64,000 bases of DNA, taken from assembly GCA_017626405.1 (NCBI GenBank), contig JAGAIS010000007.1, positions 8,280 through 72,279 of the forward strand. Reading direction: 5' to 3'. The notes beneath the pieces were generated by a model that worked only from the letters and a program-made list of their open reading frames with translations, made no database searches and was not told the DNA's origin. The first letter of the stretch is position 1; each line of letters begins with the position of its first letter. The translations under genes were made by a program, and so were the position numbers. The stretch is from Bacilli bacterium. GTDB taxonomy: Bacteria; Bacillota_I; Bacilli_A; RF39; UBA660. Shown piece after piece: positions 28,376 through 43,625 of this stretch.

Positions 28376-28522
28376 CGGATATTTACATTTATAAATGGCG
28401 ATATATAATTAAGTAAAATGAATTAATTGTCTGTTGGATGATTAGTTCATTTTTTTATTGGAGTGTGATTATTATGATTGTATGCAATTAAGGATTAATT
28501 ATACTAGAAAAGGACTGATATT

Positions 28523-28858
28523 ATGAAATTTATAAAAATTAAACCTACCAATAACTATAGTAATGAAAAGAGAATTAAACTATTTATAAAAGATAAATAT
28601 TATCTTAATAAAGTAACTTTCACATTAATACTAAATTATCCTTTAGAAATAATTAATGGAATACCTGATGAATTAATAATACCAGTTAATAATGGAATAA
28701 TTAATCAAGCTTATATTAAGAGATTAATTTATAGAGAATCAACTAATAAAGAAGAAATAATAAAAAAATATTTGGATATCCCAAATATTTTTTTATTTAA
28801 AGGGGTTAATTATATTTATACGAATTTAGAAAATTTAATTATAGAAATAGAGGAATAG
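28523..28858 (+). CDS. hypothetical protein, first gene of the Rhs toxin operon
   Basis: 111-aa ORF. Its stop lies 2 nt before the tail-collar gene start. Confidence 0.4.
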   Translation: MKFIKIKPTNNYSNEKRIKLFIKDKYYLNKVTFTLILNYPLEIINGIPDELIIPVNNGIINQAYIKRLIYRESTNKEEIIKKYLDIPNIFLFKGVNYIYTNLENLIIEIEE

Positions 28859-28860
28859 AA

Positions 28861-29529: not shown

Positions 29530-29555
29530 AGCAGCTCTTTTATATAGGAGGAAAA

Positions 29556-32500
29556 ATGAAAGAAATAATAGAATTAAGAAAAGAAAGGGAAAAACATTAT
29601 TTAAATAATGACGGAACTGTAACTGCATATATGTATAATGAAGATATTCATTATTTAGAAAATGGTGAATATAAAGAAATCGATAATACTCTAGTAGAAG
29701 AAGATGGGTATATTACTAATAAAGCTAATAATTTTAAAATAAGACTTAATAAAAATAAATATTTAGTTAAGATAGAATTAAATGAAAAAGAATATTTGAA
29801 TATATCGTTAAGAAATGCTAATGCCGTTTCAGCTCATATTCTTAATAATGAAGTAATGTATAAAGAAATATTATCTAATATAGATATCCAATATTTAGTA
29901 CATGGGAAAACATTGAAAGAAAATATTATATTAAAAGATAAATTAAATAGTAACATTGTATTTAATATAGAAACAAATTTAGAATTAGTTATAAGTGATT
30001 CAAAAGTTCTAGCTAAAAATGGTGATAATATCATATATGTTTTTAATCCATTATTTATGATTGATGCGAAAGAACAAATAAATAATAATTGCAATTATAA
30101 ATTAACAAAATTAGAAAATGGATATGAATTAGAATTTATTCTTGATGAAAAATATTTAATTGAAGCAGAATATCCTATAGTTATAGATCCTACAGTAACT
30201 ACTGATAATTTAGAAAATGTTGAAGATATTACTTTATATTCTAGTCAACCGGATCATGCAGCTGCAAATACAAACTATTTATCAGTCGGTAGTGATGCTA
30301 ATGGTATTATGAGAACTTTATTAAAGTTTGATTTACCGAAAATAGCAACTGGGAATAATATAATTAAAGCTACTGCTTATCTAAAACATTTCGGGTCATA
30401 CATTAATGAAAACCCTAAAACTATTGGTGTGTATGAAGTAACAACTAATTGGAGTGAATCTACAGCAACATGGAATAATATGAATAATAATTATAATCCT
30501 AAAATGGAAACTTATTTAACTCCACCACAAATGGTTGATACAAATTCTTCATTTGACATAGATTTAACGAATATAGTTAAAAGATGGTATTCTGATAAAG
30601 AAAATAAAGGAATAATGTTAAAATGTTTAGATGAAAGTTATGATTCTACAATGCCATATTACTCATTTTATTCAAAAACTTATGATTATTTAAATAGTAC
30701 GACTTATCGTCCACTATTAACTATTGAATATCGTTTGCAAAATGGGCTACTAGATTATATGACTTATGAAAATGTGTCTTTTTCAATCGGCAATAGTTAT
30801 GTTAACAATTGTACCGGAAATTTTTCAAATGTAGTATCTTTGTCTGAAATATTAGACAGTACATGTTTGTTTGAAATGTCATTAACTTATAATACGCATG
30901 ATGTGATATTAAATAAGAATAATAAATTTGGGCTAGGTTTTAATATTAGTTATAATGACACTATTGAAGAAACCATAAATAAATATATGGAGAAGGAATA
31001 CAAATATACATGTTCAGATGGAACTAGTCATTATTTTTATAAATATATAAAAGAAGACGGAACCGATAGTGGGGAATACCATGATGAGGATGGTTTCTCT
31101 TTAACATTAGAAATAAAGAACGAAACTACTAAAGAATTCATTTTAAAAGACAAAAATAATAATGTATATAATTTTACAAATGGCTTTTTATCTAAAATAG
31201 AATATGCTGATAAAACTTATGTAAATATTACAAGAGATTTTGAAAATAAAATTACATCAATAAAAGATAGTAAAAATAATGAAGCAACTATCAGTTATTA
31301 TGAAAATAAAGTTATTTTTGCTAATGGAAACAAAAATATTACAATCAATATTTCTAACAATAAATTGACAAGTATAGTATGTAAAAATGGAAATCTTAGT
31401 TTTGAATATAATAGTAATTCTTTGATTTCTAAAATAATTGATACTAATGGACTTAGTATGGGTGTTGATTATTATAATATTGAACCATATAAAGTAAGTA
31501 AAATAACTGAATATGGTTTAAATAATGAAGAAGGTAAATCTAAATCTTTTGTTTATGAATTTAATTCAACAACGGTAACAGATAATCAAGACATTAAAAT
31601 GAGATATACATTTAATAATTTAGGTAATACTATTAGTACTGTTTTAATTAGTGACGATAATTCTTTAAAAAAATCTTATGGTTTTTCTAGTACATATGTA
31701 AATGAATTAAAAACACCAATAACAAATAAACCTTTAGCTTCAACTTTACCGATAAAATATGGTGAAAACCTGATTAAAAATGGTAGTTTTGAAACTGATG
31801 AAAAGAACTTCTTTACTAACTTTAGAAGTAGTGAAGATAGTTTTTCAGGAAGTTATTCAGTCAAAATAGAAAGTTATGGTTGTGCAGAGCTAGATAGAAT
31901 TCTTGAAAAAGATAAAACCTACACTTTTAGTGCATATTTTAAAAATAATGATATAATTGATATTCAAGTTTATGGTACGAGAGCAACTGGTCAAGATATA
32001 ATATACGAAGAAACTATTATGCCTAATTCTGAATTTACAAAATGCGATTTTACATTCGATGTAACTTATGGTTATTCTTGCGTAGGTTTTACAATTGACG
32101 TTAGAAATGATGGTATTGCATACATAGATGATGTGGTAATAAATGAAGGTGATGTTGCAAATAATTGCAATTTGATAGATAACTCAAATTTTGTTAAAGG
32201 TATTGATGGATGGAATGTTAGTGGAAGTATTGATGGTTCAGACGATATTGTAGCTAATCCATATGAAATTATTACTTTACCATCCAATGAAAAAGCAATC
32301 CAATTAAATAGTATTGTTAATGGTAGTGTATCGTTGTTAAAAACACTTAACATATCTGGTAAAAAAGGTGATACATTTACTTTTTCATTCTGGTATAAAA
32401 ACGAGGGAGTTCTAGATACAAGTTATAATATGGTTGGTAATTTGGTATCATTAACATTTTTTGATTCTAATTCTGAATTCGGTGAATGTATTAATAATGT

Positions 32501-35500
32501 TATTTTAAACTATCATGCTGATAATTGGCAATTTCATACAGAAACATGTATAGCTGAAAACGACTTTGATTCAATAGACATTAGAGTGTTTAGTATTTAT
32601 GAAACAAATCATTTACTTTTAACTAATTTTTCTCTTACTAGAGATTTAGGGTCTTTCTTTTATGAATACGATGAAAACGGAAATTTAATATCGACTATTT
32701 ATCCAGATAATAGTAAGATAAAAATGGCATATGATAAAAATAACCAATTACTGGGAGTCTTTGATGTTAAAGGTAATAATTACAGTTATGAATATGATAA
32801 TATAAAAACAGATAGATTATTAAAAGGAATTAGTCCGACAGGAATATCAAACGAAATAAAATATGATAGTTTTGGTAATCCTGTGAGAACTATAATAAAT
32901 AATGTTAATCCAAATGGTAATGAAATAAGTGGCGATTATTATATTCGATCAAAAGGAACAGATAAATATATTACACCTAATTTAAAAACAGGAGAGTTAT
33001 CACTAAAAAATGATACTTGTAGTCATTATTCTTTTTCAATAGTAAACCATAATGAAACTGAAACCAATACAAAAGTATATAATTTTACATCTTCTATTTT
33101 ACCAAACTATAAATTAACAAAATTAGAAGATAAAGCTATTCTTCAAAAAGATTCAACAGGCACTTATTTTGAATTAATTCAAAAAAATAATGGTTCATAT
33201 AATATTAAAGTATATAAAGAAGACTTATATCTTAAGGTAAATGAAGGTAGAATATCTTTAGCAAACCTAAAAGACACATCAGATTTTGAATTTTATTTTG
33301 AAACCACAAATTCTGATGAATTTATTGAAAATAGAGCCGAGTATACAGTTGATGGTAAACATATTACTAAAATTATAGATAGTTTAGGTAAAGAAACTAC
33401 ATATAGCATTAATAATGATACTGGATTAATAGATTATACTGTTTATCCTAATAATGAAAAATATATATATGAGTATAATGACAAAGATGAATTAATACGC
33501 TTATCTAAGGATGAAAAAAATATAAATTATACATATAGCAATCAGTTATTAAAAAGTGTGACTTCTGGAAATAAAACAGTTACATTTAATTATGATAATT
33601 TCTTAAATCCTTCTGAAATAAAAATTAATAATAAACTTTTAGTTAAAGATAATTATCAGTTTGATAAATTGACATCAAAAAATTATGGAAATGGGTCAAG
33701 TATTAAGTATTATTATGATGAATTAAATAGAATAAGTAAAGTTGAAAAAGAAGATAGAGTGTTTACATATAAATATAATAATTTAGGAACTCTAGACTCG
33801 ATAATAGATCATTCAACAAGTGGATATAATTATAGTTTAAAATTTAATTATGACTTTGCAAATAGATTATCTAATATTAAATGTAAAAATATGAGAATTG
33901 AATATGTTTATGACACATTTGGAAATATAATCCAAGAAAAAAATGCTTTAAATAATACTACTCATAATTTAGAATATAGTTTTAATCAAAATAATATATT
34001 AACCAAAATAAAGATAGATGATGATGCCATAAATTACAACTACGACAATTTAGAAAGATTAACAAGTGTAAATATAAATAATAATATAAAAACAGAATAT
34101 ACTTATAAAAAAATGGGTAAAAAATTATCTACTGTTATTAATACTATTAAAAAAGGAGAAGATCTATATCAATATTTTTATGATGAATTATACAACATTA
34201 TTAAGGTTACAAAAAATGGTAATACCAGTAAAGAATATGTTTATGACACTAATAATCAATTATTAACTGAAAATAATCATGATTTAAATATGAAGTTTAT
34301 ATATAATTATGATTCTGAAGGAAATATAACTTCAAAAAAAATCTTCAATTTAGAAGATAATACGTTAATTAAAGAGGACACATATGCTTATTCAAATGTT
34401 GAATGGGAAGACGAATTAACTAGCTTTAATAATGAAAATATATGTTATGATGACATCGGAAATCCAATAAGCATTGGAAATAAAACATTAAATTGGGAAA
34501 ATGGAAAAGAATTAAAATCGTATTGCGATGATATAAATACATTTGAATATTCATATAATGTTGCTGGTTTTAGAACAAATAAAAAGATTAATAATAAATT
34601 AATTGAATACTATTTAGATGATGATAAGGTTTTATTTGAATATAGCGATGATTATGTGTTATACTTCATGTATGATGATAATGATAATTTGATTGGATTT
34701 AAGAAAAACGACCAAACTTATTACTACAATAAAAATTATCAAAATGATATTATTGGAATTTATGATAATAATTATAATGAAGTTGTTAAGTATAACTATG
34801 ATTCATGGGGAAAATTAGTTTCTATTTTGGATGCTAATAATAAAGAAATTATAGATAAAAACAACATAGGAATGATAAATCCATTTAGATACAGAAGTTA
34901 TTATTATGATCAAGAAACAGGTTTATATTATTTAAATAGTAGATATTATAATCCAGAATGGGGAAGATTTATTAATTCTGATAAGATTGCTTTTTCGAGC
35001 AATGGATTATTTGGAATAAACTATTACTTATATGCTAATAATAATCCAATTAATTATATTGATTCGAATGGTGATTTCCCTTTTGCTATACCAGTGCTTG
35101 GCGCAGCAGAAATAGCCGCAGGGTTTGTTTTAGCTGCTACACTAATCTATGCTACTGCAAAAGCTATACAAAGTGTCGGTCCCATTTCGATTGATTTAGA
35201 TCTAAACGTAAGTACTCCTCCTAAAAAGGAAAAAAAATCAAAGAAAAAAAATGATAAAGATGGTAAAAATTGTTATATATATGGATTATATAATGGTACT
35301 AAAATTGAGTATGTTGGAAGAACATATGATTTGAAAGTTAGAGAAGCTCAGCATAAGCGAACTATTAGAAAAGACTTAGAAATGCATAAAATTCATACAA
35401 CTACATCATATGAAGATTGTCGAGCATACGAGCAATACTATATTGAAAAATATAAAACGCTGAATAGAGTGATAAAAAAATCGGAAAGAATTAACAATCA

Positions 35501-35588
35501 AAGAAACGGCGTGGCAATAGATTCTCCATTCTATAGAGATTATGTTAGACCATTGAAAACAGTTTATGGAGAAACATACGTAGGATAA
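29556..35588 (+). CDS. Rhs/YD-repeat polymorphic toxin (2010 aa) with two CBM_4_9-like modules, RHS core and a C-terminal GIY-YIG nuclease-like toxin domain; no signal peptide
   Basis: ATG 29556 follows TAGGAGG. NLIKNGSFE / NLIDNSNFVKGIDGW CBM-like motifs. Many YD repeats (YDxxGN, YxYD). RHS core end PFRYRSYYYDQETGLYYLNSRYYNPEWGRFINSD. Putative autoproteolysis region IDSNGDFPF. C-terminal CYIYGLYNGTKIEYVGRTYDLKVREAQHKR...N matches the GIY-x10-YxG...R...H...N nuclease motif. Confidence 0.85.
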   Translation: MKEIIELRKEREKHYLNNDGTVTAYMYNEDIHYLENGEYKEIDNTLVEEDGYITNKANNFKIRLNKNKYLVKIELNEKEYLNISLRNANAVSAHILNNEVMYKEILSNIDIQYLVHGKTLKENIILKDKLNSNIVFNIETNLELVISDSKVLAKNGDNIIYVFNPLFMIDAKEQINNNCNYKLTKLENGYELEFILDEKYLIEAEYPIVIDPTVTTDNLENVEDITLYSSQPDHAAANTNYLSVGSDANGIMRTLLKFDLPKIATGNNIIKATAYLKHFGSYINENPKTIGVYEVTTNWSESTATWNNMNNNYNPKMETYLTPPQMVDTNSSFDIDLTNIVKRWYSDKENKGIMLKCLDESYDSTMPYYSFYSKTYDYLNSTTYRPLLTIEYRLQNGLLDYMTYENVSFSIGNSYVNNCTGNFSNVVSLSEILDSTCLFEMSLTYNTHDVILNKNNKFGLGFNISYNDTIEETINKYMEKEYKYTCSDGTSHYFYKYIKEDGTDSGEYHDEDGFSLTLEIKNETTKEFILKDKNNNVYNFTNGFLSKIEYADKTYVNITRDFENKITSIKDSKNNEATISYYENKVIFANGNKNITINISNNKLTSIVCKNGNLSFEYNSNSLISKIIDTNGLSMGVDYYNIEPYKVSKITEYGLNNEEGKSKSFVYEFNSTTVTDNQDIKMRYTFNNLGNTISTVLISDDNSLKKSYGFSSTYVNELKTPITNKPLASTLPIKYGENLIKNGSFETDEKNFFTNFRSSEDSFSGSYSVKIESYGCAELDRILEKDKTYTFSAYFKNNDIIDIQVYGTRATGQDIIYEETIMPNSEFTKCDFTFDVTYGYSCVGFTIDVRNDGIAYIDDVVINEGDVANNCNLIDNSNFVKGIDGWNVSGSIDGSDDIVANPYEIITLPSNEKAIQLNSIVNGSVSLLKTLNISGKKGDTFTFSFWYKNEGVLDTSYNMVGNLVSLTFFDSNSEFGECINNVILNYHADNWQFHTETCIAENDFDSIDIRVFSIYETNHLLLTNFSLTRDLGSFFYEYDENGNLISTIYPDNSKIKMAYDKNNQLLGVFDVKGNNYSYEYDNIKTDRLLKGISPTGISNEIKYDSFGNPVRTIINNVNPNGNEISGDYYIRSKGTDKYITPNLKTGELSLKNDTCSHYSFSIVNHNETETNTKVYNFTSSILPNYKLTKLEDKAILQKDSTGTYFELIQKNNGSYNIKVYKEDLYLKVNEGRISLANLKDTSDFEFYFETTNSDEFIENRAEYTVDGKHITKIIDSLGKETTYSINNDTGLIDYTVYPNNEKYIYEYNDKDELIRLSKDEKNINYTYSNQLLKSVTSGNKTVTFNYDNFLNPSEIKINNKLLVKDNYQFDKLTSKNYGNGSSIKYYYDELNRISKVEKEDRVFTYKYNNLGTLDSIIDHSTSGYNYSLKFNYDFANRLSNIKCKNMRIEYVYDTFGNIIQEKNALNNTTHNLEYSFNQNNILTKIKIDDDAINYNYDNLERLTSVNINNNIKTEYTYKKMGKKLSTVINTIKKGEDLYQYFYDELYNIIKVTKNGNTSKEYVYDTNNQLLTENNHDLNMKFIYNYDSEGNITSKKIFNLEDNTLIKEDTYAYSNVEWEDELTSFNNENICYDDIGNPISIGNKTLNWENGKELKSYCDDINTFEYSYNVAGFRTNKKINNKLIEYYLDDDKVLFEYSDDYVLYFMYDDNDNLIGFKKNDQTYYYNKNYQNDIIGIYDNNYNEVVKYNYDSWGKLVSILDANNKEIIDKNNIGMINPFRYRSYYYDQETGLYYLNSRYYNPEWGRFINSDKIAFSSNGLFGINYYLYANNNPINYIDSNGDFPFAIPVLGAAEIAAGFVLAATLIYATAKAIQSVGPISIDLDLNVSTPPKKEKKSKKKNDKDGKNCYIYGLYNGTKIEYVGRTYDLKVREAQHKRTIRKDLEMHKIHTTTSYEDCRAYEQYYIEKYKTLNRVIKKSERINNQRNGVAIDSPFYRDYVRPLKTVYGETYVG

Positions 35589-35624
35589 CAAAATATAGCC
35601 AATTTTGACGAAAGGGATAAGTAT

Positions 35625-36659
35625 ATGGAAAATAAAAAAACTTTAATGAATTGTGAACATGGAGATACATTTGCTCTAAGAATAGTTTCAAATCAAGAAT
35701 ATAAAGATAGATATTTGATTTTTATTAGGTTTGAAACTGATTTATATGAAGATGAAAAAAATTCTAATGATACAAGTAAGCTTTTTCGAGTTAAACTCAC
35801 TAAAAATAAAGAACTTCCAAAAAGTTTTGAAGAGTTAGAGGAACTACCTTATATTATTTGTAAAATAACTTGTTATGCAAAGAGATATTGGCCATTAGAT
35901 TCTGATATGGAATATAAAGAGATAGTAGAAAAATATAAAAATGTAAAATATTATCCGGACAAATACAATTATTTATATTCATATTTGCTTATCTTGAGTG
36001 ATTATAGATGCAAAAGATATGTAAAAAACTACGTCTATTTAGGGAATTTTTCTCTAACTCCACCAGAAAAAGAATACTTTCCAGTTGATATATTTGGTAA
36101 CGTTTTTCTTCTTATAGATGATTTAGAAAGATATTGTTTGAAAAGCTATCATGAGCATAATTTGAAAAAAGGAAAAGAATATTCTGAAGAAGCCGCAAAA
36201 GAAAACAACGCTTATGCGGAGGAAGAAGTGAAAATTCAAATGGAACTTCATAATAATATAAGAAAAAGAAATAACAAAATTTTAATAACTTCAATATCTG
36301 GATGGGGAACGGGACTATATGATTGTGATACAGCGTTGGATATGAGAGATGATTATCAAAGGTATTTATTAGAATATGATTATAAAGAAGTTTTAATATT
36401 AATGAAAAAGCAATATAAAGATTTTTTAAACGATAGAGAAGAAAAAACAATATTTTGGATGGTTATTGCTGATCAAGAAATAAAAAGAAAGATACTTATT
36501 CCTGAAGTAAAAGAAAAAGCGTTAAAGTCTATAGAAGATAATTTAATTATTTGGAAAGAATTAGATCCTAAGAATTATAATATTAGAAAACAAAAATTGT
36601 ATGGATTAAAAAAAAGAATCAACGATTTTAAAAATGCTAACATAAAAAGAGATTTTTGA
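35625..36659 (+). CDS. putative cognate immunity protein of the Rhs GIY-YIG toxin (344 aa, possibly two fused immunity domains)
   Basis: Immediately downstream of the toxin gene. Cytoplasmic. C-terminal GWGTGLYDCDTALDMRDDY block resembles a DUF4259-type immunity motif (from memory). Confidence 0.5.
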   Translation: MENKKTLMNCEHGDTFALRIVSNQEYKDRYLIFIRFETDLYEDEKNSNDTSKLFRVKLTKNKELPKSFEELEELPYIICKITCYAKRYWPLDSDMEYKEIVEKYKNVKYYPDKYNYLYSYLLILSDYRCKRYVKNYVYLGNFSLTPPEKEYFPVDIFGNVFLLIDDLERYCLKSYHEHNLKKGKEYSEEAAKENNAYAEEEVKIQMELHNNIRKRNNKILITSISGWGTGLYDCDTALDMRDDYQRYLLEYDYKEVLILMKKQYKDFLNDREEKTIFWMVIADQEIKRKILIPEVKEKALKSIEDNLIIWKELDPKNYNIRKQKLYGLKKRINDFKNANIKRDF

Positions 36660-36687
36660 AAACATCTCTTTTTTATATGGAGGAACT
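36646..36687 (+). terminator. hairpin + TTTTTTATATGGAGGAA junction motif, copy 1 (terminator-like; overlaps the immunity gene stop)
   Basis: AAAGAGAT-loop-ATCTCTTT then TTTTTATATGGAGGAACT. Nearly identical to the sequence at 41963-42004. Confidence 0.55.
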
Positions 36688-36804
36688 ATGAGATACGAAA
36701 TGAATAATATCAAACATTGTCCAATTAAAGGGGTTACAGCAGTCACTGTAACCTCTAAATTTGGACCAAGAACATTTTACAATAGAGTAGAAGGATGCGA
36801 TTAA
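36688..36804 (+). pseudogene. duplicated 5' fragment (38 codons) of the M23 peptidase gene found intact at 42005
   Basis: MRYEMNNIKHCPIKGVTAVTVTSKFGPRTFYNRVEGCD* vs MRYKMNNIKHCPIKGVTAVTVTSKFGPRRFYNRVEEKYESGHH. About 95% nt identity over about 130 bp, then divergence and a stop. Confidence 0.8.
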
Positions 36805-37322
36805 ATGTGAAGAAGAAATTATACTATAATATTGTATGCTATGATGTTTTAATAATAATGATATATGCAGTTGCAGGTATAGCTTTTTTCTTTGCATTTA
36901 ATACATTTATTGGTTTATTTACAATTATTCCAATTGTATTGGAATCGAAAAGATTAGTAAAAAACATTCAAAATATACCTTTAGTTATAGAAAAAACTGA
37001 AAATGGAATCATACTATATGAAAGTTCAAACGTTATTTTAACTGATAAGTCTTTGATTAGCCTAAAAAGATACATTTTTTCTATTGACTATCTTAATATT
37101 AACGATATTTATATAAGCAATGAATATTTTATATATGAACATGCACAAAACTTATGTTTACTTTCTAATGAAAATAAAAAATATAAAATTGTGTATATAT
37201 ATACTCTTTATTCACTTTTAACATATAAGCATGAAATAAAACAAATTCTAGAAATAATAAAAACATATAATAAAAATATTGAACTATATGGCAAAATAAA
37301 AGAAATATATGAAAAAGAATAG
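36795..37322 (+). CDS. hypothetical membrane protein (possible orphan immunity protein)
   Basis: 175 aa, N-terminal TM pair. Located between the M23 fragment and the orphan rhs-CT. Confidence 0.4.
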   Translation: MRLNVKKKLYYNIVCYDVLIIMIYAVAGIAFFFAFNTFIGLFTIIPIVLESKRLVKNIQNIPLVIEKTENGIILYESSNVILTDKSLISLKRYIFSIDYLNINDIYISNEYFIYEHAQNLCLLSNENKKYKIVYIYTLYSLLTYKHEIKQILEIIKTYNKNIELYGKIKEIYEKE

Positions 37323-37355
37323 TAATGGTTCAAGAAAAATGATTATAGTGGTTCA

Positions 37356-38393
37356 TTGATAGGATTTAAATATAATAATGAAATATACTATTATCAAAAG
37401 AACTATCAAAATGATATAACAGGAATCTATGATAGTAGTTATAACTTAGTGGTAATATATAAATATAATGGATGGGGTAAAGTATTATCAGTAGTAGATA
37501 ATACAACAAATAATATAGGAAGTATAAATCACTTCAGATATAGAAGTTATTATTATGATGAAGAGACAAGTTTATATTATTTAAATAGCAGATATTATAA
37601 TCCAAAATGGTGTAGATTTATAAATGCCGATGGAATAATAGGAGCAAACCAAGATATCTATAGTTATAATCTATACTTATATTCAAGCAATAATCCAATA
37701 AAAAATTATGATTCTGAAGGAAAATCTATATTTGGTGCCATAGCTATTTGTGGTATAATTGGTGCTGCATTGAATGTTGCTCCAACATTTATAGGGGATG
37801 TAGCGAAATCTATAAAGAACAAAAAGGTAACATACTCAGGATGGAAAGCATATGCATCTGGAGCTATAGGAGGCGCAGTAGGTGGCGCAGTTGGATATTT
37901 ATGTCCGGGAGCATATTTTGCACCAATAGTTGCTTCATCATTAACAACATCTGTTTCAAATTCTCTTTTTAATAAAAAAGACCTGGATAAAACAGTAGAA
38001 ACCGCTCTAAGTGATGTAATTATAGATACAACAGTTGGAAGATTAACGAAGAATATAAAGATTCCTAAAATAAACTCTGGGAAAAATAGTTTTGCATCAG
38101 TTTTTAAGTCTGGTATAACAAAACTTAATAAAAAAACTGTAAAAAATATGTCGTTAAAAGTAATTGCAAAAGGTGTAACTTCAGAAAGTGTTTCATCTTC
38201 AATTGACTCGTCAATAGCATATTATCCAAAAAAAATAGTTGAGGATCTAAAAGAACAATCAAATGTAGTAGTTAAAGATAATGACTATGTTAGTAATTGT
38301 ATTGAGTGTTCAAACCCATCACATAATTACCCAACACTAATCCATAATGATAATAGAAATGATTATTATTGTTTATGTGTTAAGTGGGATTAG
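37356..38393 (+). CDS. orphan rhs C-terminal toxin module (RHS core end + glycine-zipper/Cys-rich toxin domain), TTG start, no ATG
   Basis: LIGFKYNNEIYYYQKNYQNDITGIYD...HFRYRSYYYDEETSLYYLNSRYYNPKWCRFINADGI is homologous to residues about 1715-1830 of the main Rhs. Divergent CT with GAIGGAVGGAVG glycine zipper and C-terminal CxxC...YYCLCVKWD. Confidence 0.75.
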   Translation: MIGFKYNNEIYYYQKNYQNDITGIYDSSYNLVVIYKYNGWGKVLSVVDNTTNNIGSINHFRYRSYYYDEETSLYYLNSRYYNPKWCRFINADGIIGANQDIYSYNLYLYSSNNPIKNYDSEGKSIFGAIAICGIIGAALNVAPTFIGDVAKSIKNKKVTYSGWKAYASGAIGGAVGGAVGYLCPGAYFAPIVASSLTTSVSNSLFNKKDLDKTVETALSDVIIDTTVGRLTKNIKIPKINSGKNSFASVFKSGITKLNKKTVKNMSLKVIAKGVTSESVSSSIDSSIAYYPKKIVEDLKEQSNVVVKDNDYVSNCIECSNPSHNYPTLIHNDNRNDYYCLCVKWD

Positions 38394-38447
38394 ATTATTA
38401 TTTGACTAAAATAATTATATAAAATATAATTAAAGTGGTGATATACT

Positions 38448-39242
38448 ATGGAAAGTACAAAATTTTTATTATTTGTAGGTATTATATTTTTGTTAGGGTT
38501 TATCATTGCTTTATTAAAAAGTATATATAAAGACATTAAAAAATATAAGAGTTTTGATGTTACAAATGTGAATGCAAAAATATATTATGAGCGTCAGCAA
38601 TGCAAAGAAAAAATTATCACTATGATAATAGGGCTTATTATTGTAATCGCATTTTTTCTTTATTGTATAATTAATCTCCCTAAAAAAATAGTTGGTACCT
38701 ATGATAACAATTATATGATAGAAAAATGTCAAATTGTCGATTATATAGAAAAACCAAAAGGAGCTTATAACGAAATGAGTTGCCATAGTGATAACTTTGA
38801 TATTACCAATGATTCTTTTGTAAACAAAAGTGGCGAGGAATTTTACTACGATGATATTGGCAAATACGCTTGTATAAAGTATTACCCAGATATGTATGTT
38901 GTTGAAATTATGAAAATAAGTGACAATGAGAACCTTATATGTGATAATTTTTATTGGCCAGGAAAAAACATCAACGATAAAACAAATTATAACTATTCGG
39001 TTATAAAATGTAATATTAAAAAGAATGATAATGGAAAAATTAATTGTGTATATGGATCAAATTTAAAAATAAATAATGTGACTTTACTTAACGAAAAAGA
39101 CATTAAAGAAAAAAGTCACGTTTGTCTAAAATACTATTGGGATAATAATACTGGTAAAATACTATATGTTAATGATACTAATAAAAACTTTAACTGCGAT
39201 AGATATTTAAAAACAGAAGAAGAAAAAGATAAAAAAGAATAG
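38448..39242 (+). CDS. putative immunity protein A (two-TM membrane protein with Cys-containing domain), cassette 1
   Basis: Follows the orphan toxin. Paralogous to 40433-41251 (shared blocks GTYDNNYMI, YACIKYYP, ICLKYYW..NTGKIL). Confidence 0.55.
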   Translation: MESTKFLLFVGIIFLLGFIIALLKSIYKDIKKYKSFDVTNVNAKIYYERQQCKEKIITMIIGLIIVIAFFLYCIINLPKKIVGTYDNNYMIEKCQIVDYIEKPKGAYNEMSCHSDNFDITNDSFVNKSGEEFYYDDIGKYACIKYYPDMYVVEIMKISDNENLICDNFYWPGKNINDKTNYNYSVIKCNIKKNDNGKINCVYGSNLKINNVTLLNEKDIKEKSHVCLKYYWDNNTGKILYVNDTNKNFNCDRYLKTEEEKDKKE

Positions 39243-39253
39243 AGATAAAGTTT

Positions 39254-39832
39254 ATGAGTGAAATATTTTTAAGATTTATACAAATTGGAGCAATGTGTAT
39301 ATCAATTTCTTTTATTGCTAAGATTACATCATCTAAAAATTTTAATGATATAAAAACAAAAAATGGATATTCATCAAAAAAAATTAAAGGTTATATCTCT
39401 TCTGATTTAGATGGGTATAAAAAAATTGTATTCGTATTATCTTTAATATTCTTTTTGTTAACAATCTATTTTTTAACTATTTATTTTCTAAAAATAAATG
39501 GCTATATAGTAGTACAAGAAAGCGAAAAAAATAATTCATTAAAAATAGCGTGCTTGATGTTTATTATATTTTTATTTAATTATTATATATTCATTTATAC
39601 ATCAAAAAGCAAGATATATTTTAATGATCAAGAAATTATAAAGTACAGGTTAATTGGAAAAAAACAAGTATTAAAATTTAGCGATATAGAAAAAGTTGTT
39701 GCTACACCAACCTCTAAATTAATATTGTATTCAAAAAATAATAGATTGGTTTTTGAATTAGAAAAATCAAATAGTAATAAGTTTATTGCACTACTTGCGA
39801 AAAAAGGGATAGATATTAATTACAAAATGTAA
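39254..39832 (+). CDS. putative immunity protein B (membrane protein with bacterial-PH-like C-terminus), cassette 1
   Basis: Paralogous to 41278-41835 (IYFN..EIIKYR.IG..Q.LKFSD..KV). Confidence 0.5.
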   Translation: MSEIFLRFIQIGAMCISISFIAKITSSKNFNDIKTKNGYSSKKIKGYISSDLDGYKKIVFVLSLIFFLLTIYFLTIYFLKINGYIVVQESEKNNSLKIACLMFIIFLFNYYIFIYTSKSKIYFNDQEIIKYRLIGKKQVLKFSDIEKVVATPTSKLILYSKNNRLVFELEKSNSNKFIALLAKKGIDINYKM

Positions 39833-39848
39833 AAAAATCTTAATGCAT

Positions 39849-39884
39849 AGGAGATATATTAAAAATATATCTCCTTTATATATG
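39849..39884 (+). terminator. hairpin + TTTATATATGGTGGAA junction motif, copy 2
   Basis: AGGAGATATATT-AAA-AATATATCTCCT perfect 12-bp stem, then TTTATATATGG. Confidence 0.55.
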
Positions 39885-40393
39885 GTGGAACGACCTCGTT
39901 ATTACCATTTGGCGGTGTAATTTCTATAGCATCTTCATCTATTGCTGAGTCAGTTACTACATCACTATTTGATAAAAAAAATGTAAAAGAGACTGCCGAA
40001 TACGCTTGTAACAATTTAGTTGAAGATTTAACAACAGGATTAGTATCATCCCTTATAAAAATTCCAGGATTAAATGCAGGAAGAAATAGTTATAATGCTG
40101 TTTTTAAATCTGGAATAACTAAAATATCTAAAAATACAGCTGCAAAAATATCTTTTAAAGTAATAGCTAAAGGAGTTGCAGTAGAAAGTTTTGGTACATT
40201 TACTACTGAAATACTCAAAAAAGGTTATGAAGTTTTAACTAAAGAACTTCCTAAAAATCCACAGCAGGCTGTTAATAATGAAGATAATAATCATAATAGA
40301 ATAGAATGTTGCAATCTTACACAAAACTATCCAACATTAGCTCATAGTAATACACAAGATAATTATTATTGCTTATGTGCTAGATGGGATTAA
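39863..40393 (+). pseudogene. 5'-truncated orphan toxin C-terminal fragment (homologous to the CT of 37356-38393), no start codon
   Basis: Open frame ...GGTTSLLPFGGVISIASSSIAESVTTSLFDKK...NAGRNSYNAVFKSGITKISKNT...CCNLTQNYPTLAHSNTQDNYYCLCARWD* aligns with ...FAPIVASSLTTSVSNSLFNKK...NSGKNSFASVFKSGITKLNKKT...NYPTLIHNDNRNDYYCLCVKWD*. Confidence 0.7.
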
Positions 40394-40432
40394 TTTAGTA
40401 TCTATATAGCATTTATTGACTTATTAATATGA

Positions 40433-41251
40433 TTGGAATATACTAAAATTGGTGATAAGATGGTTGAAAACAAGTTTTTAATAGTTATAATTTTGATTGT
40501 AATACCTGCTTTTTTAATATATTTTTGTGTTTGCTTTTATAAGCTATTAAAAAAGTTAAAAAAATTGAAAAAGTCTATGGAATCAGATAAAAAAAATCTT
40601 AAGATTTATAGTGAATATCAACGACATAAATATAGCGTAATTGCTTATGTTATTTTGATGCCAATTGTTTTTATATTATTAATTTATGGTTTTTTAGATA
40701 ATTCTAAAAGGCTTACAGGTATTTATGATAATAATTATATGATTCAAAAATGTGAGATAACAGAAGTGGATGAAGGTAGGTCACGTGCTGATAAAATAAG
40801 TTGTAAGAATGAAAATTTTTATACAAAGTATACAGTTGTTGAATATGGAGATTTAGATTACGAAGATGAAAGAAAATATGCTTGTATAAAGTATTATCCA
40901 AATGTGGAAGTAGCAGAAGTATTAAGAATAGATAACAAGGACAATTTATCCTGTGAAGAATTTTATTGGTCAAAAGAAAATGATAAATCAACTAATCTTA
41001 ATTATTCAGTTTTAAAATGTGATGTAAATGCTATTAATAGCAATATAATAGATTGTTCTATTGAATCTAGTACAAAAATATCCAATATAAAAATAGAAAA
41101 TGAAAAAAATATAAAAGAAAAAGATGGTATTTGCTTAAAATACTATTGGAGTGATAATACAGGAAAAATATTGGAAGTTAATCAATCTAATGAAAACTTT
41201 AGTTGTGATAAGTATATAAAACAGGAAGAAACTAAAGATAATACGAACTAG
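40433..41251 (+). CDS. putative immunity protein A', cassette 2
   Basis: Paralog of 38448-39242. Confidence 0.55.
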   Translation: MEYTKIGDKMVENKFLIVIILIVIPAFLIYFCVCFYKLLKKLKKLKKSMESDKKNLKIYSEYQRHKYSVIAYVILMPIVFILLIYGFLDNSKRLTGIYDNNYMIQKCEITEVDEGRSRADKISCKNENFYTKYTVVEYGDLDYEDERKYACIKYYPNVEVAEVLRIDNKDNLSCEEFYWSKENDKSTNLNYSVLKCDVNAINSNIIDCSIESSTKISNIKIENEKNIKEKDGICLKYYWSDNTGKILEVNQSNENFSCDKYIKQEETKDNTN

Positions 41252-41277
41252 TTTTTAAAATAAGCAGGAGTTAATCT

Positions 41278-41835
41278 ATGGATAGAATATTTATAAGATT
41301 TTTAGAAATATCATGTAGTTGTTTTTTATGGGTTGCAACCTTTAAGTTAGGGAAATGGATACTTACAGTAAAAAGGAAGAATAATTTCTTAGTTACTAAA
41401 AATAAGAAAGATTATGTAAGCATTAGCAATGATCGTTATAAAGGAGTATTATTTGTTGTTTTAATTATTGCTCTTATACCTTCTTTATTTTTTACTATAA
41501 GTGGACTATTAGGTGTTAAAGATGTTGAAGGTAATAATGTAATATTTATAGCAATGGTATTTTGGGTAATAGTATTTTTATCTTTAATTTTATTAATTTA
41601 TTATTTTCGATGCAAAATATATTTCAATAATGATGAAATTATCAAATATCGTTTTATCGGACATAGACAAAAATTAAAGTTTTCTGATGTAAAAAAAGTC
41701 ATGGTTAAACCACTATCAGGTATAGTATTGTATTCAGAAAATGGTAAATTAAAAGTGGACTATGACAATCCTAATGCCAGTAAATTAGTCTCTATACTAG
41801 AAAAGAAAGGTTTCATTGTTAACTATAAAATATAA
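41278..41835 (+). CDS. putative immunity protein B', cassette 2
   Basis: Paralog of 39254-39832. Confidence 0.5.
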   Translation: MDRIFIRFLEISCSCFLWVATFKLGKWILTVKRKNNFLVTKNKKDYVSISNDRYKGVLFVVLIIALIPSLFFTISGLLGVKDVEGNNVIFIAMVFWVIVFLSLILLIYYFRCKIYFNNDEIIKYRFIGHRQKLKFSDVKKVMVKPLSGIVLYSENGKLKVDYDNPNASKLVSILEKKGFIVNYKI

Positions 41836-41962
41836 ATATAGTTCTTATATTAAATAATAGTATTTTTTATCTATCCAAAGCTACCTCATCAATGGTAACT
41901 TTAAATTGCTATCAAATCATAAATGCATCAAATTTTTAAAAATAACGAGTTACAAACACTCT

Positions 41963-42004
41963 AGAGATATACTATAAAATATCTCTTTTTTATATGGAGG
42001 AATT
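41963..42004 (+). terminator. hairpin + TTTTTTATATGGAGGAA junction motif, copy 3, immediately upstream of the intact M23 gene RBS
   Basis: AGAGATAT-ACTATAAA-ATATCTCT then TTTTTTATATGGAGGAATT ATG. Confidence 0.55.
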
Positions 42005-42649
42005 ATGAGATACAAAATGAATAATATTAAACACTGTCCAATTAAAGGGGTTACAGCAGTCACTGTAACCTCTAAATTTGGACCAAGAAGATTTTACAAT
42101 AGAGTAGAGGAGAAATATGAATCTGGACATCATAATGGAATTGATATAATTGGTGGAGATACCATTGTTGCTGCTTATGATGGGGTAGTTACTAAAACTA
42201 GAAATGGAGTAAAAGGATATTCAACTAAAAACTCGTGTGGTAATTATGTTACTATCGATCATGGCAATGGGTATACTACTGTTTACTATCATTTAAAACT
42301 AGATTCAATCAAAGTAAAAAAAGGGGATCGTGTTATTGCTGGTCAAGAAATAGGTTTAATGGGAAATACAGGACATTCAATATCTAAACACTTACACTAT
42401 GGAATTAAAAGAAATAATGTATGGATTAACCCGGAGCCATTTCTTAACAATACAAAAAATATTGAAAATACTAGTAATATAAAAGAAACTAATAATAAAG
42501 AAATAATATATGTCGTAAAAAAGGGTGATAATTTAACTAAAATAGCTAAAAAATATAATACTACTTGGAAAGCAATTTATAAAAAAAACAAGGAACTTAT
42601 TGGGGATAATCCCAATCTTATACTTGTTGGATGGAAATTAAAAATATAA
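42005..42649 (+). CDS. M23 family metallopeptidase with C-terminal LysM domain (peptidoglycan endopeptidase, endolysin-like)
   Basis: HxxxD (HHNGIDI) and HLH (HLHYGI) M23 motifs. C-terminal LysM (YVVKKGDNLTKIAKKYNTTWKAIYKKN). No signal peptide. Confidence 0.8.
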   Translation: MRYKMNNIKHCPIKGVTAVTVTSKFGPRRFYNRVEEKYESGHHNGIDIIGGDTIVAAYDGVVTKTRNGVKGYSTKNSCGNYVTIDHGNGYTTVYYHLKLDSIKVKKGDRVIAGQEIGLMGNTGHSISKHLHYGIKRNNVWINPEPFLNNTKNIENTSNIKETNNKEIIYVVKKGDNLTKIAKKYNTTWKAIYKKNKELIGDNPNLILVGWKLKI

Positions 42650-43017
42650 TTGATTTAAAAATAATAGCAAGTACGTTTATTTTTTTAGTTGGTGGTTTTG
42701 ATAATATGTTTATTACTCTTTTAATTTTTATTGCTCTTGATTATATAACAGGTATAATTAAAGCAATTTATCAAAAAAAATTAAATAGCAAATTGGGATT
42801 AAAAGGATTTTTAAAAAAATTAGGTTATATTTTGATAGTAATAGTTGCAAGTTTATTTGATTCAATTATAGGAGATAAACAAATGGCGATAAGAACATTA
42901 TGCATATATTTTTTTATATCTAACGAAGCCATTTCAATACTTGAAAATTGGGCAGTTATGGGCCTTCCTCTTCCGAAAAAGATATTTCAAGTGTTTGAAT
43001 CTTTAAAAGAAGAATAA
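42631..43017 (+). CDS. TcdE/phage_holin_4_1-family holin-like protein (toxin-secretion/lysis holin)
   Basis: 3-TM, 128 aa. Blocks KIIASTFIFLVGGFDNMFITLLIFIALDYITGIIKA and NEAISILENWAVMGLP are characteristic of this holin family. Overlaps the M23 gene end by 19 nt. Confidence 0.65.
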   Translation: MEIKNIIDLKIIASTFIFLVGGFDNMFITLLIFIALDYITGIIKAIYQKKLNSKLGLKGFLKKLGYILIVIVASLFDSIIGDKQMAIRTLCIYFFISNEAISILENWAVMGLPLPKKIFQVFESLKEE

Positions 43018-43021
43018 ATGT

Positions 43022-43050
43022 TGACTAAGTTGAAAAAAAGGGTTAATATA
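43022..43050 (+). promoter_or_regulatory. sigma-A-type promoter (TTGACT-17-TAATAT) for the regulator gene
   Basis: -35 at 43022-43027, -10 at 43045-43050. Confidence 0.45.
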
Positions 43051-43079
43051 TACAACCAAGTAGTTTAAGAGGTGATTAT

Positions 43080-43589
43080 ATGATTGATTCAATTTCAGCT
43101 AAGGACTTTGTTGAATTACCAGATATTATGTTAGATAAATCTAAGAATGTAAAATATATTCAACTATTAAGTGAGAATACAATAGATGACTATTACTATT
43201 CAAATTTGCGAAAAGATTTAGAAGTTATATTTAATAAGTTCAAAGATTCTAAATATCTTATACATTATCAAAATGACTATAACTTAAAATCTAATCCTTT
43301 TGAAATTAATAGAAATACCAATAGAATTAATGATAAAGTAGGAAACTATATTGAGAAAAAATTAGATCTAAGTATTTGGTCAAAAGATCTTTATAACATC
43401 TTAATCAATCTATCCGAAGAACTGACAATAAAGGAGACAATATATTTAACTTCTACATTCTTTGATAATAAAACAGAAGAAGAAATAGAAGAACTAATGG
43501 ATATTTCAAGAAAAATGTTATATAAAATAAAAAAGAGTTGTCTAGTAAAATTAAGATTAGAATTTTCAAAATATAATTTAATTGATTAG
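43080..43589 (+). CDS. small sigma-70 region-4-like / ArpU- or TcdR-like transcriptional regulator (hypothetical)
   Basis: 169 aa. C-terminal EEEIEELMDISRKMLYKIKKSCLVKLR resembles a sigma region-4 HTH. Located next to the holin. Confidence 0.35.
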   Translation: MIDSISAKDFVELPDIMLDKSKNVKYIQLLSENTIDDYYYSNLRKDLEVIFNKFKDSKYLIHYQNDYNLKSNPFEINRNTNRINDKVGNYIEKKLDLSIWSKDLYNILINLSEELTIKETIYLTSTFFDNKTEEEIEELMDISRKMLYKIKKSCLVKLRLEFSKYNLID

Positions 43590-43591
43590 AG

Positions 43592-43625
43592 AAGTGTGAT
43601 TTTTTTCACACTTCTTTTTAATTTT
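43592..43625 (+). terminator. rho-independent terminator (AGAAGTGTGA..TCACACTTCT + T-run)
   Basis: Perfect 10-bp stem and T-run. Confidence 0.7.

Follow-up and report, generated by a model that had tools for sequence, protein, structure and literature searches.

An M23/LysM peptidoglycan hydrolase gene, a holin gene and a small regulator gene probably form the release-and-control end of a cassette (27972-43617) of phage late-operon descent that codes for an Rhs bacteriocin released by lysis. The cassette is part of the window, i.e., the whole stretch of 64,000 nucleotides analyzed here, and its features are listed in Table 1. An initial annotation had described the three genes as a trio appended to the end of an Rhs array. 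This trio is indeed conserved in the same cassette at 15 loci with differing flanks, yet the unit is larger than proposed and already starts around position 27972. Because it starts there and includes a receptor-binding-like gene (28861-29529), the whole unit can be read as a stripped-down phage late operon. Judged from sequence comparison, the trio beside Rhs is a conserved part of the cassette and not a set of chance neighbors.

Table 1. Features of the Rhs cassette, with positions in the window.
Feature	Position	Strand	Remarks
Whole cassette	27972-43617	+	15.6 kb, self-contained unit
sm103, first cassette gene, 103 aa, own promoter	27972-28283	+	Same-position homologues in L008, L010, L012, L021, L026
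Two arrays of 11-nt-phased direct repeats	28283-28370	+	TRF: 4.6 x ATTACAGTTTT, 2.9 x AAAAAAGATAT
Main operon promoter TTTACA-16-TATAAT	28382-28409	+	Match 11/12
Leader hairpin with U7 run, terminator/attenuator	28415-28456	+	About +5 to +45 of transcript; -15.5 kcal/mol, z -5.0
Conserved 111-aa protein	28523-28858	+	Homologues precede Gp10_C in L008, L010, L021
Phage tail-fibre/receptor-binding-like protein (Gp10_C)	28861-29529	+	PF21939 E 3.4e-22; PHROG tail protein E 1.3e-23
Rhs polymorphic toxin, 2010 aa	29556-35588	+	Start 29556: ATG after RBS AGGAGG
Candidate cognate immunity protein, 344 aa, soluble	35625-36659	+	By position; no family match
Recombination scar: hairpin, RBS and first ~35 M23 codons, 144 nt	36648-36791	+	92-95% identical to 41965-42108
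175-aa membrane protein between scar and first orphan toxin module	36795-37322	+	TM-like segment in first ~50 residues
Orphan Rhs core fragment and second C-terminal toxin	37356-38393	+	71-85% nt identity to main Rhs 34672-34982
Two membrane proteins (264, 192 aa), candidate immunity for second toxin	38448-39832	+	TM segments
Junction hairpin, second copy, then TATATGGTGGAA	39849-39875	+	-13.2 kcal/mol
Third orphan toxin C-terminus, truncated	39880-40393	+	Paralogous to C-terminal part of 37356-38393
Two membrane proteins (272, 185 aa)	40433-41835	+	Paralogues of 38448-39832
Weak terminator-like hairpin with T6 before M23	41963-41992	+	-7.5 kcal/mol, z -3.5; 10 nt 5' of M23 RBS
M23 endopeptidase with LysM, endolysin-type, 214 aa	42005-42649	+	Peptidase_M23 E 5.8e-24; LysM E 1.8e-11
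TcdE/phage-family holin, 128 aa	42631-43017	+	Phage_holin_4_1 (PF05105) E 3.3e-37
Promoter-like site for regulator, TTGACT-17-TAATAT	43021-43049	+	Consensus match only
Putative divergent ArpU/Ltr-type activator	43080-43589	+	Helical N-terminal domain and sigma-region-4-like HTH
Closing intrinsic terminator, strong	43588-43617	+	-16.2 kcal/mol, z -7.2

Organization and Spread of the Cassette

The upstream part of the cassette comprises, in this order, a small protein, direct repeats, a promoter, a leader terminator, a 111-aa protein and one to three Gp10_C proteins, while the downstream part consists of an Rhs protein of about 2020 amino acids, immunity genes, M23/LysM, the holin and the regulator. 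This order was found at 15 distinct loci, the window included (the other 14 being L001, L005/L015, L006, L008/9, L010/11, L012, L014, L016+L021, L017, L018, L019, L020, L026 and L038), with an M23 identity as low as 38%. All carriers are uncultured gut Bacilli represented by MAGs. The chromosomal flanks are unrelated between loci and comprise, for instance, rpoBC, an IS element, TraG/CHAP, CCA-enzyme/Lon or an OatA-like gene/UvrB. The small first protein, sm103, has no match in Pfam, PHROG or PADLOC; in distant loci, its domain is fused into proteins of 510-575 amino acids that adjoin the regulator. The 111-aa protein does not match any family either.

The initial annotation had allowed for the holin/M23 pair being the lysis cassette of a prophage with flanking structural genes, which largely does not hold: no capsid, terminase, portal or tail-tube genes occur within ±10 kb of any cassette locus, and tail tube, sheath and baseplate hub genes are absent within 10 kb of the loci examined. 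An intact prophage is ruled out because no structural genes were found, Gp10_C tail-fibre-like genes being the only ones of phage type. No att-site repeats were found around the cassette, the sole common 12-mer looking like chance. The only match in IMG/VR (L013) covers the regulator and Rhs alone, and a PHROG scan of the class-2 loci L022 and L030 gave no recognizable phage functions.

The Lysis Genes

The M23/LysM protein had been annotated as a peptidase without a signal peptide. The open reading frame is present, both domains match and an N-terminal hydrophobic segment or signal peptide is absent. The metal-binding motifs HxxxD (H43) and HxH (H129) are intact, and the start codon (ATG, 42005) follows a GGAGG ribosome binding site at 41997-42001. 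The enzyme belongs to a small M23 clade of 63 clusters (E ≤ 1e-20). A true siphophage-like prophage (L039), laid out differently from the cassette, uses a related M23 domain as its lysin.

The profile searches suggested along with the initial annotation confirmed both assignments, with matches of the hydrolase to Peptidase_M23 and LysM and a score of the holin against TIGR01593 (‘toxin secretion/phage lysis holin’) of 94.1 bits, above the cut-off of 40.2. The holin has several TM-like segments and is 41-43% identical to annotated phage holins. The overlap between the M23 and holin genes, which had also been pointed out, is real and conserved: it spans 19 nt and recurs unchanged among the genes called in L001, L005 and L010. 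The dN/dS is below 0.4 in each gene of the trio, indicating purifying selection on M23 (0.07-0.28), the holin (0.02-0.19) and the regulator (0.09-0.39).

The hairpin before M23 had been called strong. Since it is only an AT-rich 8-bp stem (41963-41986, with the T-run ending at 41992) of -7.5 kcal/mol, compared to -15.5 kcal/mol for the leader hairpin and -16.2 kcal/mol for the closing terminator, this is an overstatement, and the element looks like one that fits attenuation rather than a strong block. A hairpin with a T-run is present at this place in L001, L005 and L012, and absent in L008 and L010. M23 and the holin lack a promoter that serves them directly, and read-through has to be assumed for their expression.

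The Regulator and the Operon Leader

For the small regulator, the sigma-region-4-like HTH and the promoter-like site of its own stand as first described, but the proposed likeness to TcdR does not, as the family grades into ArpU (TIGR01637). The C-terminal DNA-binding domain has a sigma-4 fold, as in the LtrA family; a search for sigma region 2 in the regulator returned region-4-like matches only. TIGR01637 (ArpU packaging/lysis regulator) is matched by 29 of the 74 regulator relatives retrieved with the profile (best E 4.2e-8). The window protein itself has no match to this model at E ≤ 0.1 and reaches the threshold of no ArpU or sigma model. By these comparisons, the protein is probably a divergent late activator of the ArpU/Ltr type and not a TcdR-like sigma factor. 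Its family is a small one (149 representatives in 1.84 billion proteins), and a search of 50,697 phage records for the regulator gave no match. The gene is interrupted in L010/11, L018 and L019. A similar hairpin and T-run directly 3' of the regulator also occur in L001, L005, L008 and L038. A structure model built from 18 sequences (pLDDT 56) was dropped, and an alignment of 74 sequences was used instead.

Proteins of the Ltr/ArpU type bind direct repeats upstream of late promoters and thereby activate late operons, including lysis genes (PMC3753634). In the window, the two repeat arrays are located directly 5' of the -35 element of the main promoter, and other loci carry different repeats with the same 11-nt phasing in the same place. 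These arrays are therefore a candidate binding site of the putative ArpU-type activator. The main promoter is kept in position and sequence in L008, L010, L020 and L021. Among seven distinct copies of the leader hairpin, the changes that keep the pairing comprise one compensatory and four one-sided ones; the leader has no match in Rfam at E ≤ 1. The initial annotation had overlooked that the strong regulatory terminator of the cassette is this leader element. SOS control was considered and rejected, as the promoters have no Cheo/LexA box nearby and the window contains no more matches than expected by chance.

The Rhs Toxin, Its Partners and Module Exchange

In line with the initial annotation, the Rhs protein has neither an N-terminal hydrophobic segment or signal peptide nor T6SS/T7SS markers, with no PAAR, VgrG, LXG or WXG matches. 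It carries, successively, DUF7948, DNRLRE, CBM_4_9, the RHS/YD shell, the Rhs core (TIGR03696) and a hydrophobic helix. Its C-terminal toxin gives a weak GIY-YIG-like match below threshold and nothing in the PDB. Across loci, the C-terminal toxins vary (Tox-WTIP, Tox-REase-7, weak GIY-YIG). The YD shell, a core with a cleavage motif, a variable C-terminus, downstream immunity genes and orphan modules together characterize the protein as a polymorphic toxin. In each locus for which the sequence or the gene predictions examined extend 5' of Rhs, one to three Gp10_C copies precede the toxin. The window copy lacks a signal peptide and is 38-42% identical to the C-termini of ‘antireceptors’ of Lactobacillus delbrueckii phages.

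Between Rhs and M23, candidate immunity genes alternate with orphan toxin modules. The 175-aa membrane protein has no family match in PHROGs, NCBIfam or PADLOC, and the 185-aa protein at 41278-41835 weakly matches DUF6560. The junction hairpin occurs in three copies in the window cassette. One of these belongs to a scar that repeats the hairpin, the ribosome binding site and the 5' end of M23, which shows M23 to be the right-hand recombination arm, its start serving in the exchange of toxin modules. In the other loci, no such M23 scars were found, and the junction hairpin alone is repeated in L012 and L018.

Proposed Mechanism and Alternatives

From the domains, gene order, purifying selection, repeats, hairpins and scar, we infer the following functional steps. 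The regulator would be expressed from its own weak promoter, possibly supplemented by read-through, creating positive feedback. By binding the phased repeats, it would activate the main promoter, from which transcripts would still have to pass the leader terminator, keeping the operon off in most cells. The operon products would be the 111-aa protein, the Gp10_C receptor-binding-like protein, the signal-less Rhs and the immunity proteins. The weak terminator-like hairpins after each immunity module would allow only part of the transcription to reach M23 and the holin, so that, as we propose, the lysis proteins lag behind toxin and immunity. Once the holin permeabilizes the membrane, the signal-less M23/LysM protein could reach and cut the peptidoglycan, and the Rhs protein of about 230 kDa would escape with its partners, probably at the cost of the producer cell or of a subpopulation of cells. 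Outside, the CBM and Gp10_C parts may bind glycans on the target surface, the C-terminal toxin would be delivered and kin would be protected by immunity. In this reading, export of Rhs would depend on the holin and M23, and non-lytic secretion of the T10SS kind fits the sequence evidence as well as lysis of a subpopulation does. Precedents are the lysis-cassette release of Rhs-type Tc toxins by T10SS (PMC10847048) and the release of clostridial toxins by TcdE (PMC3369941). More tentatively, the cassette may represent a new class of Gram-positive bacteriocins in between colicins and tailocins, in which a cocoon-packaged Rhs is released by a dedicated endolysin and holin from a sacrificial subpopulation, is guided to its targets by Gp10_C docked on the Rhs N-terminal region, and is controlled by an ArpU-type activator and a promoter guarded by the leader terminator.

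Two other roles for the cassette are improbable, though worth weighing. Gp10_C and Rhs may together be a swappable tip, combining receptor binding and toxin, of phage or tailocin particles whose genes lie elsewhere in the genome, in which case the lysis genes and the activator would release particles and not free Rhs. The similarity of Gp10_C to phage antireceptor C-termini (38-42% identity) and tail-protein PHROGs, the place of the regulator within the phage late-activator superfamily, the lack of a translocation device of the cassette's own and a protein downstream of Rhs in L013 that partially matches a small terminase all point in this direction. We nonetheless consider such a helper-dependent module unlikely, as tail tube, sheath, baseplate hub, capsid and portal genes are missing within 10 kb of the examined loci, the chromosomal contexts are unrelated, regulator, promoter and lysis genes all come with the cassette itself, and the 50,697 phage records contain no match to the regulator. 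There is an equally small chance that Rhs is deployed without lysis, with the holin and M23 opening local gaps by which a producer that stays alive would place Rhs on its wall or across it, to act by contact, either in a T10SS-type manner or as in WapA-like contact-dependent inhibition. Holin-dependent secretion without lysis is documented for TcdE and T10SS (PMC9527704, PMC13284979), the weak terminator before M23 would hold lysis-protein levels low and LysM could localize the hydrolase. However, the Rhs N-terminus has no wall- or membrane-anchoring feature, M23 is, unlike the TcdL fragment, a complete endolysin-type enzyme with intact catalytic motifs, and control by the leader terminator together with interrupted regulators fits a costly, suicidal function.

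Far less plausible still is that a decaying prophage left the lysis genes and the regulator beside the Rhs array, without a role in Rhs biology. All components do have a phage ancestry and the regulator is interrupted in three loci, but this reading sits poorly with an order conserved in 15 loci down to 38% M23 identity, with dN/dS values of 0.02-0.39 and intact M23 catalytic motifs, with the conserved 19-nt overlap between M23 and the holin, and with the M23 5' scar, which makes M23 part of the exchange unit. We attach just as little weight to anti-phage abortive infection, whereby infection would trigger the Rhs toxin and suicide lysis. An activator of the phage late type could detect incoming phages, and toxin and lysis together would kill the infected cell; yet polymorphic C-terminal toxins with cognate immunity and orphan modules are a hallmark of interbacterial competition, and the carbohydrate-binding and receptor-binding-like domains suggest an extracellular target. 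A defense system was also rejected since PADLOC gives no matches.

Comparison with Known Systems

A non-exhaustive literature search for the architecture of the cassette returned only T10SS/Tc loci, the PaLoc, colicins and tailocins/late operons as analogues. Like the T10SS and Tc-toxin lysis cassettes (Yersinia entomophaga YenTc, Serratia ChiWXYZ, Salmonella TtsA), the cassette combines a phage-derived holin and a peptidoglycan hydrolase dedicated to a large signal-less cargo, likewise under tight regulation. In Yersinia, a specialized subpopulation lyses to set free a cargo of which an Rhs-type TcB/TcC cocoon is part (PMC10847048). Of the features of T10SS in the broad sense, a holin in the locus, an adjoining signal-less hydrolase and conserved linkage to a signal-less cargo outside a functional prophage are present here. 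In contrast to these systems, the cassette host appears to be a monoderm member of the Bacilli and no spanin gene is present within 42005-43617; as spanins relate to the crossing of the outer membrane in Gram-negative T10SS, they do not apply to a monoderm host. The hydrolase is furthermore an M23 enzyme with LysM instead of a muramidase or L-Ala-D-Glu endopeptidase, the place of an insecticidal ABC toxin is taken by an interbacterial polymorphic Rhs accompanied by immunity genes, the lysis genes share the toxin operon and the regulator appears to be of the ArpU type, not PhoB-like.

The likeness to C. difficile TcdE/TcdL/TcdR put forward in the initial annotation applies to the TcdE-family holin, but not to a TcdR-type sigma factor, and it is limited by the Rhs cargo and the intact hydrolase. 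The PaLoc (TcdR-TcdB-TcdE-TcdL-TcdA) and related clostridial loci share with the cassette the holin family (TIGR01593/Phage_holin_4_1), a locus in which a large toxin without signal peptide occurs together with a gene derived from a lysin and a small positive regulator whose HTH is of the sigma-4 type, and the phage ancestry of the module. They differ in the regulator, which lacks sigma region 2 in the cassette and clusters with ArpU rather than with group-5 sigma factors, in the hydrolase, which is full and intact in the cassette and an endolysin fragment in the PaLoc, and in the cargo, which is an Rhs/YD protein where the clostridial loci encode a large glucosylating toxin. The cassette additionally has immunity genes, orphan toxin modules and genes for receptor-binding-like proteins.

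Colicin operons display the same order of toxin, immunity, terminator-like hairpin and lysis function in one operon, and there, too, release costs the producer while immunity protects kin. Group A colicin operons carry an internal terminator before the lysis gene. The cassette deviates by a phage holin and endolysin in place of a small lipoprotein, by the lack of a LexA/Cheo box, and by a toxin enclosed in an Rhs shell with separately encoded receptor-binding-like proteins. With monocins, diffocins and ArpU/RinA/Ltr-controlled phage late operons, it has in common the nature of a domesticated phage late operon: direct repeats precede the late promoter (PMC3753634), the activator is putatively of the ArpU type, receptor-binding proteins are encoded, and the operon ends with genes for release by holin and lysin. 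Unlike these, it lacks tail tube, sheath, tape measure and baseplate genes, would kill by an Rhs-encapsulated enzyme toxin with immunity, and has its regulator gene at the far end of the operon, not just 5' of the repeats as in phage late operons.

Implications and Relatives Beyond the Cassette

Among Gram-positive bacteria, large toxins of the Rhs/YD and teneurin-like types often come without a signal peptide or known delivery machine, as stated in a 2026 study of bacterial teneurin-like proteins (PMC13018210). For one widespread gut lineage, the cassette offers a testable answer, i.e., toxin release via a dedicated phage-derived lysis module under control of the late-operon type. If this is true, release by holin and hydrolase extends from virulence toxins (PaLoc, Tc) to the interbacterial polymorphic toxins of monoderm gut commensals, and the reading as a bacteriocin class would explain how signal-less Rhs/YD toxins exit monoderm cells. 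The cassette moreover neatly illustrates how a phage late operon can be cut down to a receptor-binding protein, payload, lysis genes and an activator, in which the promoter, repeats, leader and regulator make up a compact conserved regulatory system.

Distant relatives of the regulator (30-37% identity) occur directly upstream of Gp10_C and/or Rhs in L013/L036, L032 and L035. No lysis genes were found near these relatives within the sequence examined, so that not all Rhs proteins of this type would be released by lysis. A short contig (L024) carries Gp10_C, M23, holin and regulator without Rhs in between, and in L037 a close relative of M23/LysM occurs by itself on the chromosome.

Lysis genes, toxin and accessory proteins

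The three open reading frames assigned to the end of the Rhs array in the initial annotation are all present, and they close the unit referred to here as the cassette (27972-43617). The M23 protein matches endolysins and metallo-endopeptidases among the PHROGs, retains intact HxxxD and HxH metal-binding motifs and shows no N-terminal hydrophobic segment. Its ORF overlaps by 19 nt with that of the holin, which scores 94.1 bits against TIGR01593 ('toxin secretion/phage lysis holin'; curated cut-off 40.2). The Rhs protein comprises DUF7948, DNRLRE and CBM_4_9 domains, YD repeats and the Rhs core, as well as a hydrophobic helix rich in Gly and Ala; its C-terminus bears a weak resemblance to GIY-YIG. 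No signal peptide was found in it, and no window-encoded protein is large enough for an EssC-type T7SS ATPase. Directly 5' of the Rhs gene, a 222-aa protein carries a Gp10_C baseplate/tail-fibre domain (E 3.4e-22) and matches a PHROG tail protein (E 1.3e-23), with the C-termini of Lactobacillus delbrueckii phage 'antireceptor' proteins as best phage matches (38-42% identity). The Gly/Ala-rich helix opens each C-terminal toxin just past the Rhs core motif (35070-35160, 37720-37800) and could be a membrane-insertion or translocation element. The multi-TM protein pairs behind the orphan toxins CT2 and CT3 suggest that these toxins act on the membrane.

Features of the cassette (window coordinates unless a locus is named)
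Feature	Position	Description
sm103	27972-28283	103 aa, first protein of the cassette
Direct repeats	28283-28370	4.6 x ATTACAGTTTT + 2.9 x AAAAAAGATAT; 11-nt period; immediately 5' of -35
Promoter	28382-28409	TTTACA-16-TATAAT
Leader hairpin + U7	28415-28456	begins a few nt past -10; -15.5 kcal/mol, z -5.0
Leader hairpin copies	L008 9563; L010 9417; L012 9889; L020 168; L021 9291 and 15198	
Mini-ORF	28459-28492	RBS-preceded, right behind leader hairpin
Rhs start	29556	preceded by AGGAGG
Array order		Rhs-CT1, immunity, junction + M23', 175-aa protein, orphan core-CT2, two membrane proteins, junction, truncated CT3, two paralogous membrane proteins, junction, intact M23
Junction + M23' copy	36648-36791	92-95% identical to 41965-42108; hairpin, RBS, first ~35 M23 codons
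Multi-TM pairs	38448-39832; 40433-41835	paralogous; 3' of CT2 and CT3
Third hairpin copy	39849	with 'TATATGG(A/T)GGAA'
Hairpin before M23	41963-41986	then T-run, GGAGG ten nt on, ATG at 42005
M23	42005-42649	214 aa; Peptidase_M23 E 5.8e-24; C-terminal LysM E 1.8e-11
Holin	42631-43017	128 aa; Phage_holin_4_1 E 3.3e-37
Regulator	43080-43589	169 aa
Closing terminator	43588-43617	strong, -16.2 kcal/mol

Conservation and phage ancestry

The window DNA is chromosomal, and a window protein matches an NCBI MAG protein of an uncultured 'Bacilli bacterium' at 100%. The left flank holds the spc/alpha ribosomal operon together with secY, adk, map and rpoA; next are genes for a T2SS-F-like protein, a prepilin peptidase, a protein with DUF2207, a GH5 cellulase and an acyltransferase resembling OatA. 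On the right, short-chain dehydrogenase-like and UvrB-like ORFs were recognised by reading translations. The G+C content of the cassette (27972-43620) is 24.7%, compared to 30.0% in the left and 28.7% in the right flank, a mildly atypical value that is consistent with horizontal acquisition.

Loci found via homologues of the regulator, Gp10_C and M23 proteins were traced to their contigs (for the regulator, also in species-representative genomes) and annotated uniformly with phmmer. One gene order is common to the window and 14 other distinct loci: sm103, a protein of 105-120 aa (111 aa in the window), one to three Gp10_C proteins, Rhs, immunity/orphan genes, M23/LysM, holin and regulator. Across loci, Rhs measures 2018-2061 aa and ends in a locus-specific toxin (Tox-WTIP, Tox-REase-7 and others). 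In the most distant cassette (L038), the M23 protein is 38% identical to that of the window. All carriers are gut MAGs labelled Bacilli or 'Tenericutes', from mouse, rabbit, sheep, chicken and human-type samples, and the flanks are unrelated (rpoB/rpoC in L012, an IS element in L010, TraG/CHAP in L008, CCA enzyme/Lon in L001). The short contig of L024 (1105-3347) has no Rhs gene between Gp10_C and the M23, holin and regulator genes, which come immediately after it.

Capsid, terminase, portal, tape-measure and tail-tube genes are absent, within 10 kb, from the window locus and all 14 others. In L039, by contrast, a more distantly related M23 protein serves as lysin in an ordinary siphophage-type prophage, where its gene is located behind Sipho_tail and Prophage_tail genes. 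The closest phage holins are 41-43% identical to the window holin. Judging by these comparisons, the lysis pair is of phage origin, yet here part of a different, conserved unit. Pairwise dN/dS values of 0.07-0.28 (M23), 0.02-0.19 (holin) and 0.09-0.39 (regulator), or 0.02-0.39 overall, argue against decaying remnants, a reading that is disfavoured.

Junction copies and exchange of toxin modules

A hairpin does precede the M23 gene, as initially annotated, but it is weak rather than strong (eight AT-rich pairs, -7.5 kcal/mol, z -3.5). Copies of this junction, one of them extended by the M23 start (M23'), punctuate the array. The M23 start is the right-hand homology arm for the insertion of toxin/immunity modules, with the Rhs core as the left-hand arm.

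Control region and regulator

The control region at 28283-28456, upstream of the gene for the 111-aa protein, had been overlooked in the earlier account of regulation. Its repeats are candidate activator sites or phased A-tract bends. Other loci carry repeats of different sequence in the same 11-nt phase, the pattern that would be expected from co-variation of activator and site. No LexA box was found in the region. Promoter and leader hairpin are kept in L008, L010, L012, L020 and, twice, in L021. The stem sequence is conserved (AATGAATTAAT/ATTAGTTCATT), the loops differ, and pairing is preserved: both partners have changed in one pair, a single partner in four others. The hairpin, for which an Rfam search returned no family, could function as a terminator/attenuator or serve as an antiterminator target. 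Mini-ORFs also occur at the equivalent position in L008, L010 and L012; the products at these sites, that of the window included, are of the kind MIVCN*, MVC* and MKRRK*.

The regulator itself has no Pfam match and only sub-threshold sigma-70 region-4 matches, in its C-terminal half. Its family is small, with 149 representatives in a set of 1.84 billion proteins clustered at 50%, and tblastn against 50,697 phage records gave no match. TIGR01637 (ArpU family phage packaging/lysis transcriptional regulator) is matched by 29 of the 74 family members scanned (best E 4.2e-8) and the sigma-70 superfamily model, via region 4, likewise by 29 of 74; in Pfam, rare and weak Sigma70_r4 matches are all that occurs. 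Short direct repeats immediately 5' of a late promoter are the binding sites of ArpU/Ltr activators, which turn on the genes for morphogenesis and lysis (PMC3753634).

In distant loci (L013/L036, L032, L035), the regulator gene immediately precedes Gp10_C and/or Rhs, and the available sequence shows no lysis genes; the link between regulator and Rhs is thus older and broader than the link to the lysis pair. Downstream of regulator and Rhs in L013 (8662-9573), the only IMG/VR match, a 303-aa protein partially matches a small-terminase PHROG (E 7e-13). The regulator of distant loci often adjoins a larger protein with an sm103-homologous C-terminal domain. Such regulator-adjacent proteins of 510-575 aa (L022 7960-9501; L030 7805-9529), whose N-terminal part looks Rossmann-type oxidoreductase-like by eye, suggest that sm103 partners the ArpU-type protein in regulation. 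In L010/L011 (one locus), L018 and L019, an in-frame stop splits the regulator ORF and M23 and holin are intact; these may be silenced cassettes. L021 and L016 form a single cassette on one contig (CAJUPN010000007.1) with two regulator copies, one upstream behind its own promoter and leader copy and one at the usual 3' end.

Proposed release mechanism and related systems

Anatomy, conservation, selection and the recombination scar are direct observations, to which we add a functional sequence that we infer. The activator would switch the operon on through the direct repeats, with the leader terminator limiting basal expression. The first products to build up would be toxin, immunity and receptor-binding-like proteins; the weak hairpins behind each immunity module would let only part of transcription pass into M23 and holin. 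The holin would then give the signal-less M23/LysM enzyme access to the wall, and Rhs and its partners would get out, probably as a subpopulation of cells lyses. Carbohydrate-binding and receptor-binding-like parts would then choose the target outside the cell. The release-module interpretation of the initial annotation, whose underlying observation holds, is supported in part and considerably sharpened.

In colicin operons, a terminator precedes the lysis gene, and the module is predicted to work alike. It is also predicted to work like T10SS/lysis-cassette release of Tc toxins (PMC10847048) and TcdE-dependent toxin release (PMC3369941, PMC12485765). As far as sequence can tell, the cassette conforms to a holin/hydrolase release system, with a predicted export role for its genes. 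For bacterial teneurin-like YD toxins, the delivery mechanism is still unknown according to a 2026 paper (PMC13018210), and a non-exhaustive literature search returned no description of this cassette. By ancestry the cassette is akin to tailocin loci and to late operons under ArpU control. Neither its regulator nor its toxin fits the PaLoc type (the C. difficile TcdR/TcdB/TcdE/TcdL/TcdA locus), to which it therefore does not belong.
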